Source: an uncultured archaeon
GTDB lineage: Archaea; Iainarchaeota; Iainarchaeia; Iainarchaeales; 0-14-0-20-30-16
NCBI GenBank assembly: GCA_964565725.1
Contig: CAZMGA010000013.1
Span: 1 to 17,228 of the forward strand
Direction: 5' to 3'
Length of the DNA: 17,228 nucleotides
The notes under the pieces were generated by a model. That model was not told the origin of the DNA. It ran no database searches and saw only the letters and a program-made list of their open reading frames with translations. The position numbers and the translations under genes were made by a program. The number at the start of each line of letters is the position of its first letter. Position 1 is the first letter of the stretch. Shown here piece after piece: positions 1-3,166 of the stretch.

Positions 1-387
1 AAAAATTTTACAATTACTTGGGATGCAGAAAAAGATAGAAAAACAAAAGCAATTATAAAATTAAATACCTCTATAGATGAAATTGATTTTGATGAAACTA
101 AATTTACTTGTGTAAAAAATAAAGATACATCTATTATATCTATATTTCAAATGTTGCCAAATGGGGAATATATATATACAACTAATGAAACTCAAATGCA
201 TTTTAAGAAAGAGGGAACAGATATATTTATATGTGTAAAAAATAGGGAAGTTCCTGCGCCAGTAGTAACTCCTGAACCAAAGCCGTTAAAACCATCTGAT
301 GATGGTACTACTCCTACAAGTAATTTTAACTTTAAAAAGTTTTATAATGGATTATTGGAAAAATTATTAAAAAAAAAAGCCCTATAA
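1..387 (+). CDS. C-terminal part of a larger ORF entering from the left edge (frame 1). It has a beta-rich domain of unknown family followed by a Pro/Thr-rich linker. It is probably the upstream part of the SGNH-amidase gene, from which it is separated by a -1 frame change at an A10 tract.
   Basis: Frame 1 has no stop from nt 1 to TAA 385-387; the ORF track lists it only from the Met at 151. The segment VPAPVVTPEPKPLKPSDDGTTPTS looks like an interdomain linker. No family was recognised for the preceding part. Confidence 0.55.
   Translation, partial: KNFTITWDAEKDRKTKAIIKLNTSIDEIDFDETKFTCVKNKDTSIISIFQMLPNGEYIYTTNETQMHFKKEGTDIFICVKNREVPAPVVTPEPKPLKPSDDGTTPTSNFNFKKFYNGLLEKLLKKKAL
369..378 (+). 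repeat. A10 homopolymer lying in the only interval (348-387) where frame 1 and frame 3 are both open
   Basis: Read directly: ...ttatta aaaaaaaaaa gccctataa. In frame 1 it reads L L K K K A L stop. In frame 3 it reads K K K S P I T K... Confidence 0.9.
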
Positions 388-1724
388 CTAAAACAAACAC
401 AATTACAACAGTAAATTCTACTGAAAATTATCTTTTTATTGGAGATTCAATTACTGTTGGTAATTGGTATAAATATTCATCTTTAAATGATGGTGCTAGA
501 TGTGCAATTAGTGGCGCAGAAGCAACAGATATTTTAAAATATTTAGAATCAGACTGTACAACAAGTAATTTAAAATATACTAGCAATTATAATTTCAAAA
601 ACTTTTCTAATTACGAAACAGCAGTAATTCATTTAGGAGTAAATGATTTGAGACATGTAAGCCCTAATGAATTGCAAAATAGAACACAAAACATCATTAA
701 TTTTTTAAACAATAAAGGAATCAAAAAAATTATATTATTAACAACTATACCTACAAAAACATTTGCAAATAGAAACATTAAAATTAAAACATATAATGAC
801 TGGATAAAAACATTAAATGGAAAAAATGGAATAACTGTTGTAGATGCAGCATCTAATTTTTATACTAATTCAAATGTAAATACTAATTATTATATTGATG
901 ATTTACACCCTAACGAATTAGGAAAAAAAGCGATGTCTGAGGCTTTAGATTTATATATTGCAAAATTGTTAGTATATGAAGGCCCCATAGATGAACCGTT
1001 TAATGCTTCTGATGAACCATTTACTTTATTTCTAATGGCTGGAACTAAAACCATTAATAGTTTTTTATCAACTTATTTATTATCTGTTGATGAGGTAATT
1101 AATTTAAAAAATACAATTGATGTGAATGAATTATATCTAAATCATAAATATTTAAGTAAATTAGATAAAAGAACAAGTTATGGTTTTGTAGTTTTACATG
1201 ATGGTGGAGATATTCCTATATGTAAAGATAATAAAGATCAAGAAAATTGCGTAATAAAAAATATAATTTTAGGACAATGGAAAAATAGTGGTTTATCAAG
1301 TCATTACTATATTGGTTGTGATGGAAAAATATTTAAATTAATTTCTGAAAATTATATAGCAATGCATGCAGGTTGTAATAAAGATTATTGTGTAAAAGGA
1401 ATGAATAATGTATCTATAGGAGTAGATTTAAGAAATTGTAGTAGATATACTGAAAATAAATCTTCTTATACGAATGCACAACATAACTCTTTAAATTTAT
1501 TATTAAAAGATATGTACTCACGAGGAATAATAAAAGAAATTGTTGATGAAACTGTAATTGCCCATTTTGAAATTAATAAAAATAAAGGGGATCCAGAAGC
1601 TGGTTTTAATTGGTTAATCATAGATGGTCTTTTAGAGGATCATAGATTATTAAGAGAAAATAATAAAGATACCCCATTTCAAAAAGCTTTAAAAAAAGTT
1701 ATAACAGATACCACATACGCCTAA
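378..1724 (+). CDS. SGNH/GDSL hydrolase domain fused to an N-acetylmuramoyl-L-alanine amidase (Amidase_2/PGRP-AmpD type) domain; putative peptidoglycan-degrading enzyme. It has no start codon of its own upstream of the catalytic blocks. The ORF-track start at 648 is a TTG inside the domain.
   Basis: Frame 3 is open from 348 to 1724. SGNH blocks: LFIGDSITVG (432-461), AISGAEA, HLGVND (GVND at 636-647), DDLHPNELG (897-). Amidase_2 signature over about 1182-1613: GFVVLHDGG, HYYIGCDGKIF, AMHAG, NNVSIGVDL, YTNAQHNSL, IAHFE, KGDPEAGFNW. The H...H...K-x-D-P pattern resembles AmpD/T7-lysozyme Zn ligands. Confidence 0.75.
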   Translation, partial: SPITKTNTITTVNSTENYLFIGDSITVGNWYKYSSLNDGARCAISGAEATDILKYLESDCTTSNLKYTSNYNFKNFSNYETAVIHLGVNDLRHVSPNELQNRTQNIINFLNNKGIKKIILLTTIPTKTFANRNIKIKTYNDWIKTLNGKNGITVVDAASNFYTNSNVNTNYYIDDLHPNELGKKAMSEALDLYIAKLLVYEGPIDEPFNASDEPFTLFLMAGTKTINSFLSTYLLSVDEVINLKNTIDVNELYLNHKYLSKLDKRTSYGFVVLHDGGDIPICKDNKDQENCVIKNIILGQWKNSGLSSHYYIGCDGKIFKLISENYIAMHAGCNKDYCVKGMNNVSIGVDLRNCSRYTENKSSYTNAQHNSLNLLLKDMYSRGIIKEIVDETVIAHFEINKNKGDPEAGFNWLIIDGLLEDHRLLRENNKDTPFQKALKKVITDTTYA

Positions 1725-2431: not shown

Positions 2432-3166
2432 TCACTCATAATCTCTAGGGGCTAAGAAAAATTCTATATTTGCATTACCAATAAGATATCTTACTTTCAA
2501 AGGGGCGTTAGTTTTAATATTTAATTCAACATCAGTATCTACAGCACCTTTTAAAATATTTTGCAAATATTCTATAGAAAACATAGCAGTAGCTTCATTT
2601 TTTATATCTTTATCAGAAATTTGTTCTGAATTTAATTCTGTTTTATTTTCTAAATCACCTTGTGGACCTTTTGCGTTTATTTTAAAACTATTTTTATCCA
2701 CATTGAAAAGCAAATATGTTGAAAACAAACTTGCATCTTTTACACCATCTAATAAAGCATTAGATTTTATTTTTAATATGGCATCAAAAGCAATACTAGG
2801 ATTAGGAATTTCATTACTAGATAAATCTAATAAATTTATTGAAAAACTTCTAACATTATCTCCAGATAAAATAACATTTAATCTTTTATCTTTTACTTTT
2901 AATGATAATTTATCATTATTTTTTGCTCTTTTTAAAATACTTAATAATGATGGCAAATTAATACCTAATTTTGTGCTTCCAGAAACATCGAATTTTTCAA
3001 AAACGTCTTTAGGCATATTAAAAGTAACCATTGCAATTTGTGCGGCATCAATTGCTTTTAAGGATACTCCATATTCATTAACTACAAATTCAGCATCTTT
3101 AATCAAATCTACCATTGCATCAATACTTTGTCTAAATAATTTAGCATCAGATAATACTAACTCCAT
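2432..3166 (-). CDS. pcn: DNA polymerase sliding clamp PCNA (canonical-looking paralog)
   Basis: 244 aa. Motifs seen: MELVLSDAKLFRQSIDAMVDLIKDAEFVVNEYGVSLKAIDAAQIAMV, GINLPSLLSILKRA, and the C-terminal IEFFLAPRDYE. An SD-like AGAGGTG (complement of 3172-3178) lies 5 nt upstream of the ATG. Confidence 0.88.
   Translation of the reverse strand: MELVLSDAKLFRQSIDAMVDLIKDAEFVVNEYGVSLKAIDAAQIAMVTFNMPKDVFEKFDVSGSTKLGINLPSLLSILKRAKNNDKLSLKVKDKRLNVILSGDNVRSFSINLLDLSSNEIPNPSIAFDAILKIKSNALLDGVKDASLFSTYLLFNVDKNSFKINAKGPQGDLENKTELNSEQISDKDIKNEATAMFSIEYLQNILKGAVDTDVELNIKTNAPLKVRYLIGNANIEFFLAPRDYE

Follow-up and report, generated by a model that had tools for sequence, protein, structure and literature searches.

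How could the catalytic half of a gene be expressed when it lies in a reading frame that offers no start codon before its catalytic serine? This question is raised by the first 1,724 nucleotides of a 17,228-nucleotide stretch of DNA from an uncultured archaeon (contig CAZMGA010000013.1; the whole stretch is hereafter the window), in which a run of ten adenines (A10) splits a gene for a putative secreted peptidoglycan hydrolase with an SGNH esterase domain and an amidase domain. The same one-base-short break stands at the same spot in three species, and for this reason the tract probably gates the amount of full-length enzyme, rather than reflecting an error or a dead gene. The best-supported reading, to which we assign a probability of about one half, is that a retained slippery A-tract may gate the catalytic half of the hydrolase.

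Two reading frames meet at an A10 tract

Translation of the window confirmed that frame 1 is open from base 1 to a TAA at 385-387, ending ...FYNGLLEKLLKKKAL / ...NFNFKKFYNGLLEKLLKKKAL before the stop. The open reading frame (ORF) listing confirmed that frame 3, which follows a TAA at 345-347, is open over 348-1724 (stop TAA 1722-1724) and has the TTG at 648 as its first ATG, GTG or TTG. The A10 tract lies, as the preliminary description of this DNA had stated, inside the one interval that is open in both frames. The features of the locus are:

1-387, plus strand: 3' part of the upstream ORF in frame 1 (128 codons and stop, by translation); the complete ORF is P0008
348-387, plus strand: the unique interval open in both frames, from the frame-3 TAA (345-347) to the frame-1 TAA (385-387)
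369-378, plus strand: A10 tract and candidate slip site, read TTA AAA AAA AAA G in the 0 frame, with the heptamer A_AAA_AAA in phase
378-1724, plus strand: downstream coding part in the -1 frame (frame 3), with linker SPITKTNTITTVNSTEN, SGNH domain at about 435-929 and Amidase_2 domain at about 1185-1598
429-461, plus strand: SGNH block I, YLFIGDSITVG, with the catalytic Ser (FIGDS at 435-449); position 429 is also a junction of N-terminal modules
636-650, plus strand: SGNH block III, GVND (636-647), followed by the TTG at 648-650, which is the gene-caller start of a 358-residue product
897-908, plus strand: SGNH block V, DDLH, with the catalytic Asp and His, placed by sequence and Pfam alignment range

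The 0-frame codons run TTA (367-369), AAA AAA AAA (370-378), GCC, CTA and TAA, the stop standing two codons past the tract. When tract lengths were simulated, a single ORF was obtained with A8 or A11 only, while A9, A10, A12 and A13 failed. One added A, or a -1 slip, joins the two frames into a continuous ORF as had been claimed; the junction peptide proposed with that claim needed correction, since it reads ...LLEKLLKKK-SPITK and holds three lysines, not four. The A10 tract is the longest homopolymer of the 17.2 kb window (24% GC) and its sole run of at least ten.

The frame-3 translation matched Lipase_GDSL_2 (PF13472; 8.9e-16, 59.3 bits against a cut-off of 32.9) over residues 30-194, covering 1-177 of the 178 profile positions, and Amidase_2 (PF01510; 3.2e-14, 53.8 bits against a cut-off of 26) over residues 280-417. 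Of the SGNH catalytic motifs, GDS (block I), GxND (block III) and DxxH (block V) all occur, each in frame 3. With blocks I and III both lying before the TTG at 648, the view that the A10 tract breaks an SGNH-amidase gene and leaves its GDS block upstream of any start codon is borne out; the 358-residue protein called here (P0001, both at NCBI and in Logan) begins at that TTG and would be without the catalytic Ser. The amidase domain matched AmpDh2, AmiD and AmpD (PDB and NCBIfam), and alignment with AmpDh2 (4bj4) shows SxHY, AxHAG, SIG(I/V) and xH...K.DP to be kept. Its score against the NCBIfam AmpD equivalog was 40.5 versus a cut-off of 143, and it is therefore a member of the family rather than an AmpD ortholog.

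The downstream part has no start codon before 648, no Shine-Dalgarno-like motif and no signal peptide of its own; motifs of the GGAG or GGTG type precede about half of the window genes. Off-frame stops occur in the contig at 0.125 per codon, and the longest off-frame open stretch among the 18 other genes is 62 codons. At this density the probability of finding all 90 start-less codons (378-647) free of stops is ~6e-6 (2e-8 for a start-less stretch of 132 codons), so their openness is not accidental. Neither stops nor indels were found in the 1.2-1.4 kb downstream ORF of the window or of the L006, L010 and L104 alleles described below, and the catalytic motifs are intact. Between the window and L010, the ratio of nonsynonymous to synonymous substitution rates (dN/dS) is 0.48 over 378-647 and 0.33 over 648-1721.

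A search of representative proteins gave the complete upstream ORF, P0008, which is 246 residues long and starts 354 nt before the window. Behind an N-terminal signal peptide or membrane anchor (MFFDNNKLKFLFLFGFLFIMFDIFLINFSYA) it has a variable module rich in beta structure and then a Pro/Thr linker, and it closes with a C-terminal helix, ...FNFKKFYNGLLEKLLKKK-AL, before the stop. In L102, one of the independent Logan assemblies that we retrieved by exact look-up of neighbouring and upstream proteins, the P0008 ATG is preceded by GGAG and an AT-rich, TATA-like stretch. The promoter-proximal ATG, the Shine-Dalgarno motif and the signal peptide of the locus are thus found on the upstream ORF only, and P0008 joined to frame 3 of the window gives a protein of 692 residues. 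An AF2 single-sequence model of the 246-residue product (pLDDT 43) was unusable for the fold and confident only for the helices at 5-33 and 229-243. Protein homologue and profile searches detected no homologues of the N-terminal modules; the search with the L010 upstream ORF was without a match, and the P0004 N terminus matched itself only. The DNA at 316-348 is repeated directly at 579-611 with 79% identity, each copy being read in its own frame (TSNFNFKKFYN in frame 1, TSNYNFKNFSN in frame 3); this is probably coincidental, given the low complexity of an AT-rich gene.

The same one-base-short break occurs in three species

Comparison of orthologous loci, a check that the preliminary description had suggested, revealed the same one-A-short break at the homologous tract in two further species. 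Species A is that of the window; species B has broken alleles (L010, L011 and L012) as well as in-frame alleles (L013, L100 and L101), and species C is represented by L104. In the housekeeping flanks, A shares 68-72% identity with B or C, and B shares 84% with C. The junctions read:

Species A, window: 0 frame TTA AAA AAA AAA GCC CTA TAA; -1 frame KKK-SPITK...
Species B, broken, L010 = L011 = L012: 0 frame GCA TTT AAA AAA AAA GTT CAA TAA; the -1 frame opens inside the tract and reads KK-SSISETNN...KYLFIGDS
Species C, L104: 0 frame ...PGFWKPFFEKFYEGLLKKKVQ and stop (GGA TTA TTA AAA AAA AAA GTT CAA TAG); -1 frame GIIKKK-SSIVEIQ...ILFIGDS
Species B, in frame, L013, L100 and L101: TTT A10 GTT; one frame throughout
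Positions of the homologous tracts: L010 838-846 (A9 after TTT); L104 3272-3281 (A10 after TTA); L013 7096-7105

All three broken alleles carry (AAA)3 followed by G, with a 0-frame stop two codons on; each needs one added A, and none needs one removed. The -1 frame opens close to the tract in every case (up to seven codons before it) and reads KKK-S..., and the interval open in both frames, which is 40 nt in the window, 16 nt in L010 (840-855) and about 27 nt in L104, is always centred on the tract. Conservation of the peptide begins at the first codon past the tract, as KKK followed by SS[IV]xE. Tract length is constant within each allele lineage across samples.

In-frame alleles also exist. 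Those of species B (P0004-P0007) read ...GFWQGFFTKLKDAFKKKSSVIETT... in a single frame (...AFKKKSSVIE...), and the A9 of L010 and the A10 of L013 occupy the same chromosomal locus, as diverged alleles that are 81-85% identical within the gene while their flanks are 95-99.7% identical. In L004, which belongs to the window's own species, another upstream module is joined in frame at 429 (...ANLFELTQKTNQGENKVPEKEHK-YLFIGDS) and the tract is absent. Since in-frame alleles exist, since the start codon, Shine-Dalgarno motif and signal peptide are found upstream only, and since the encoded domains act on the extracellular cell wall, it follows that both parts were originally one ORF. The broken alleles do show two ORFs, yet the sole signal peptide is on the upstream one. 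A separate upstream gene followed by a conserved non-canonical initiator, the arrangement that would have spoken against a broken gene, was not what we saw, as L013, L100, L101 and L004 read through the junction.

The species-C locus differs in layout. Its upstream ORF is 423 residues long with the same type of signal peptide, the tract is followed by two tandem SGNH domains, the second with GTS for GDS (L104 2019-5786), and the amidase is a separate gene, P0003, with its own signal peptide.

Long A runs are avoided in other genes

In these genomes AAA accounts for 91% of Lys codons. An AAG is nevertheless present in 13 of the 14 Lys runs of at least three in other genes of the three species (binomial P 1.5e-7; some sites are orthologous, and this is uncorrected), whereas the hydrolase tract is uninterrupted in four of four alleles (Fisher P 0.0016 versus the other Lys runs). 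When the codons of the window's other 18 genes were shuffled synonymously, runs of A9 or longer were expected 4.15 times and observed twice (P=0.03); for A10 or longer, the expectation was 2.07 and none was observed (P=0.02). Avoidance of long A runs in coding regions is a signature of genomes in which such runs slip (Baranov et al., PMC1088944). Because they are avoided elsewhere in these genomes, the run at the hydrolase locus is either tolerated or used. The two A9 runs in intact genes are at 7753-7761 (Asn-synthase fusion) and 9188-9196 (methyltransferase), the latter being the only uninterrupted AAA AAA AAA outside the hydrolase locus.

A slippage model

In the arrangement that we propose, a single gene would encode a signal peptide, a variable N-terminal module, a linker helix, an SGNH esterase and an AmpD-like N-acetylmuramoyl-L-alanine amidase. 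The default product would be the 246-residue secreted N-terminal module ending two codons past the tract; the full-length 692-residue enzyme would be made only when slippage restores the frame, in a fraction of transcripts or ribosomes. The likeliest route would be transcriptional slippage, in which RNA polymerase adds one A on the A10/T10 template, and an unstimulated -1 ribosomal slip on A_AAA_AAA would be the alternative. The tract would act as an attenuator, or as a setter of the ratio of short to long product, and rare heritable changes of its length would flip the default product (compare the in-frame A10 allele of species B).

Runs of at least nine A are established sites of transcriptional slippage and are avoided in coding regions (PMC1088944). 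By the length rule taken from that work (about nine or more A, frame restored by one added nucleotide), the A10 of the window and L104 and the A9 of L010 are long enough, and one added nucleotide restores each frame. Ribosomes, too, have been reported to slide on A runs (PMC5009743). An in-phase A_AAA_AAA lies at 372-378 with the -1 frame open across it, likewise in L010 and L104, and the break with a constrained ORF downstream of it is common to three species, although there are in-frame alleles as well.

Several observations weigh against this model. No conserved stimulatory RNA structure was found 5-9 nt downstream of the tract in the three alleles that were folded. Folding was significant for the window (z=-3.4), with a helix about 18 nt from the tract, and for L010 (z=-4.0), with a different structure, while L104 gave z=-0.7 with none; the regions upstream of the tract showed no significant folding. 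A conserved frameshift-stimulating hairpin was therefore rejected, and a canonical -1 programmed ribosomal frameshift signal is unsupported, while transcriptional slippage is unaffected by this result. That slippage yields the full-length protein, and which step is responsible, we infer from sequence. The frameshift is not obligatory for the gene family, since in-frame (L013, species B) and tract-less (L004, species A) alleles occur in the same species. Because the tract mutates fast, the parsimony argument (one change versus three) is weak, and three independent deletions at a hotspot are conceivable. Finally, the family is tiny in public data (three species, about five alleles), and the L010, L011 and L012 assemblies may share one read set.

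In a bolder form of the slippage model, the (AAA)3 tract would be a site of programmed slippage, at the transcriptional or the ribosomal level, whose conservation in DPANN archaea is ancient. It would set the ratio of the secreted targeting module to the full-length enzyme at a hypervariable, module-swapping locus used in host or prey interaction. We put this forward tentatively, as somewhat less probable than not.

Competing explanations

Of the four explanations offered for the break in the preliminary description, phase variation and slippage rescue proved the best supported, and neither an assembly error nor a simple pseudogenising indel fared well. Were the A10 a miscall, the true tract would be A11 (or A8) and the gene an ordinary single ORF. 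Homopolymers of at least ten are classic sites of such miscalls, and one A7/A8 discrepancy separates two assemblies of a near-identical species-B strain: positions 6288-6295 of L011 read A8 where L010 has A7, the sole difference between assemblies that are 99.99% identical, which splits an MFS transporter gene in L011. These data sets therefore do contain homopolymers that differ in length, whether the difference is real or artefactual. However, the NCBI contig has the same A10 as three Logan assemblies, which come from three runs and represent three haplotypes: L102 (SRR8925755), identical to the window over -912..504; L103 (SRR16642441), with two single-nucleotide polymorphisms (SNPs); and L006 (SRR8925826), with six. 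L001 differs from the window over 11.9 kb by 11 substitutions and no indels, with 13 other A/T runs of at least eight spanned. The homologous break recurs in three species-B assemblies and one species-C assembly, and the in-frame A10 allele was called A10 consistently in three assemblies. The Logan contigs continue through the tract unbroken, which is uninformative on length heterogeneity. As a miscall would have to recur identically in three haplotypes and with several assemblers while sparing all other homopolymers, we consider an assembly error very unlikely. Equally hard to sustain is the expression of two separate proteins, with the downstream ORF started by termination-reinitiation or at a non-canonical initiator. 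A candidate is the -1-frame ATA, which the 0-frame stop overlaps by two bases in three of three broken alleles (ATAA at 384-387 of the window and 852-855 of L010; ATAG at about 3286-3289 of L104), an overlap that resembles the ATGA overlaps of coupled genes. But ATA initiates translation very poorly and has no Shine-Dalgarno motif ahead of it, although about half of the window genes have one, and its product would lack a signal peptide though both catalytic domains act on the extracellular cell wall. Moreover, the in-frame alleles translate through the junction with GTA replacing ATA, and in an AT-rich genome an Ile ATA codon with A or G behind it gives this overlap trivially.

Heritable phase variation alone is a more serious contender, if on balance an unlikely one: replication slippage would toggle the tract, the window strain would be OFF for the catalytic half, and rescue at the RNA or ribosome level would be negligible. 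Species B has both states at one locus, A9 broken (L010-12) and A10 in frame (L013, L100, L101), within nearly identical flanks; the gene encodes a secreted or surface protein; it lies in a hypervariable spot of a near-clonal genome (swapped modules, clustered nonsynonymous SNPs, contig breaks); and the uninterrupted tract is kept though other genes purge such runs. Yet the tract state follows allele type, being A10 in all three species-A haplotypes from three runs and in the window, and A10 in all in-frame species-B assemblies. The A9 and A10 of species B are not recent switch variants, because the alleles are only 81-85% identical within the gene, and the broken alleles are all short by one A, with none long by one. 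A strictly DNA-only switch is further unlikely because replication slippage on an A10 should be accompanied by slippage in transcription. Recurrent recent pseudogenisation would have the KKK tract as the most mutable site of a dispensable gene, which lost one A three times and has not yet decayed. The A7/A8 difference in the MFS gene shows that homopolymer indels occur in these populations or assemblies, the existence of in-frame and tract-less alleles makes the break dispensable, accessory lytic enzymes are often lost, and cross-species dN/dS values of 0.3-0.5 are blind to a recent loss of constraint. Three independent hits in the same codon phase would nevertheless be needed in the only three species known, and no second lesion is seen in ~1.2-1.4 kb of any lineage despite 0.125 off-frame stops per codon. 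In addition, species A has kept its broken allele for so long that three haplotypes of it have arisen, and the tract is uninterrupted in all four alleles against the genomic trend. With the one-A-short state in three species and the downstream ORFs intact, a simple pseudogenising indel is disfavoured, and we rate its recurrent form as improbable.

Comparison with known recoding and contingency systems

The only proven programmed -1 frameshift in Archaea is that of fucA1, the alpha-L-fucosidase gene of Saccharolobus solfataricus, whose sister strains have a full-length gene with an A run differing by one (PMC8211752). Each locus is an archaeal chromosomal hydrolase gene in two ORFs, in the 0 and -1 frames, that overlap by 40 nt, with A_AAA_AAT in fucA1 and A_AAA_AAA in the window; each has full-length relatives with an A run off by one and a Lys at the junction of the full-length product. 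In contrast to fucA1, which is flanked by rare codons and a putative stem-loop, the window locus has no conserved stimulator, and its tract of 9-10 A is long enough for transcriptional slippage. The break is common to three species here and two strains there, and the hydrolase is secreted and its gene hypervariable.

Transcriptional slippage on A9/T9 runs is described for dnaX of Thermus thermophilus, for insertion sequence (IS) element transposases and for mapW candidates of S. aureus (PMC1088944), and rescue through poly(A) tracts in Buchnera and Blochmannia is cited in PMC5009743. Like the A9/T9 sites, the hydrolase gene has 9-10 A in coding sequence, a close stop in the unslipped frame and an ORF restored by one added A; it would give short and long products from one gene, in a small AT-rich genome that avoids such runs. 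The endosymbiont cases differ in being regarded as tolerated damage, whereas here the tract is kept in four alleles of three species. To our knowledge, the established cases of slippage on A/T runs are all bacterial or viral, and slippage of archaeal RNA polymerase on such tracts is not documented.

Bacterial contingency loci vary in phase through homopolymers in surface and host-interaction genes of Campylobacter, Neisseria, Haemophilus, Helicobacter and Mycoplasma (PMC2831843, PMC3025981). The hydrolase locus resembles them in its intragenic homopolymer within a secreted or surface gene, in the toggling of the frame between A9 and A10 in species B, in its hypervariability and in that the window organism is probably associated with a host or prey; it differs in that the tract state is constant within an allele lineage across samples, not mixed. 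A full-text literature search found no archaeal precedent for a homopolymer contingency locus, nor are we aware of one.

In archaea and bacteria, modular peptidoglycan hydrolases combine a targeting module with a catalytic amidase or esterase, and archaeal ones that kill bacteria have been described (PMC12352652); murein-degrading enzymes have been reported in Woesearchaeota metagenome-assembled genomes (MAGs; PMC9723730). With the former the present protein shares a signal peptide, a variable N-terminal module and catalytic domains, its Amidase_2 domain being akin to AmpD, AmiD and AmpDh2; with the latter it shares a Woesearchaeota-like host. It departs from the modular hydrolases in its rare SGNH and Amidase_2 pairing and in N-terminal modules without detectable homologues, and none of the described enzymes has been reported with an interrupting slippery tract. 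Only a handful of relatives with the SGNH and Amidase_2 combination were found among 5.8 billion protein clusters. A pattern scan of GTDB representative genomes with the SGNH-amidase alignment gave no relative, and tblastn gave no homologue at 80 syntenic Woesearchaeota/Methanosarcinales loci located by a 687-residue neighbour protein. In JGI metagenome contigs, a protein-pattern scan had no match and a DNA-pattern scan returned two unrelated high-GC bacterial SGNH genes.

The locus is a second candidate for archaeal recoding beside fucA1; it spans three species and four alleles with the tract, and the in-frame alleles serve as natural controls. Should the bolder form of the slippage model hold, Archaea would have a second case of recoding and DPANN their first, and the locus would also be the first analogue, among archaea, of a contingency or attenuation locus. 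DPANN archaea are ultra-small and uncultivated and are believed to live on other cells, and in host-associated bacteria the combination of hypervariability and tract gating marks genes of the host/prey interface. The locus points to a secreted lytic enzyme with a hypervariable targeting end and a catalytic end that may be gated by the slippery tract. For annotation, gene callers give a 358-residue "SGNH-amidase" without its catalytic serine and an unrelated hypothetical protein, where the real unit would be a protein of 692 residues.

Hypervariability of the gene and its surroundings

Variation at the locus is concentrated in the hydrolase gene. The L001 and L005 contigs break exactly at 429, and contig breaks fall at the polymorphic sites 429 and 486. 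The block I DNA (TATCTTTTTATTGGAGATTCAATTACTGTTGGTAATTGGTAT, 429-470) is near-identical between species that are ~70% identical elsewhere, with a synonymous substitution rate (dS) of 0.39 versus 0.95 downstream, and it looks like a recombination anchor for module swapping. This region contains the palindrome CAATTAC-TGTT-GGTAATTG. Within species A, the variation between strains is clustered as well:

121-323, plus strand: six strain polymorphisms between L006 and the window, all nonsynonymous (K>E, N>D, R>S, K>E, P>T, N>S)

There are no SNPs in the other 2.9 kb shared with the L006 contig, and L103 has two of the six. The cluster suggests diversifying selection on the N-terminal module or imported variation in it; as for a diversity-generating retroelement as its cause, the window contains neither a template-like repeat nor a reverse transcriptase.

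A phage origin was rejected: blastn of positions 1-1800 against phage records gave no match, and the gene content of the window is that of an archaeal chromosome (two PCNA genes, primase large subunit, TFIIB, RadA, ThiI, L35Ae and a diphthamide-synthase fusion). Judged by its sequence, the window is chromosomal DNA of an AT-rich, Woesearchaeota-like DPANN archaeon with no close sequenced representative. The two PCNA genes are divergent and stand in tandem on the minus strand directly downstream of the hydrolase gene (1725-2426 and 2432-3166). In species C, an AbiEii-family gene lies near the hydrolase locus (L104 345-1091). The neighbour protein used above to locate syntenic loci is encoded at 6915-8978 of the window and is a 687-residue fusion of glutamine amidotransferase/asparagine synthase with Diphthami_syn_2. 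It is 38-47% identical to proteins across Woesearchaeota, other DPANN and Methanosarcinales MAGs, and by this protein the nearest species-representative genomes are Woesearchaeota and other DPANN MAGs, at no more than 47% amino acid identity.

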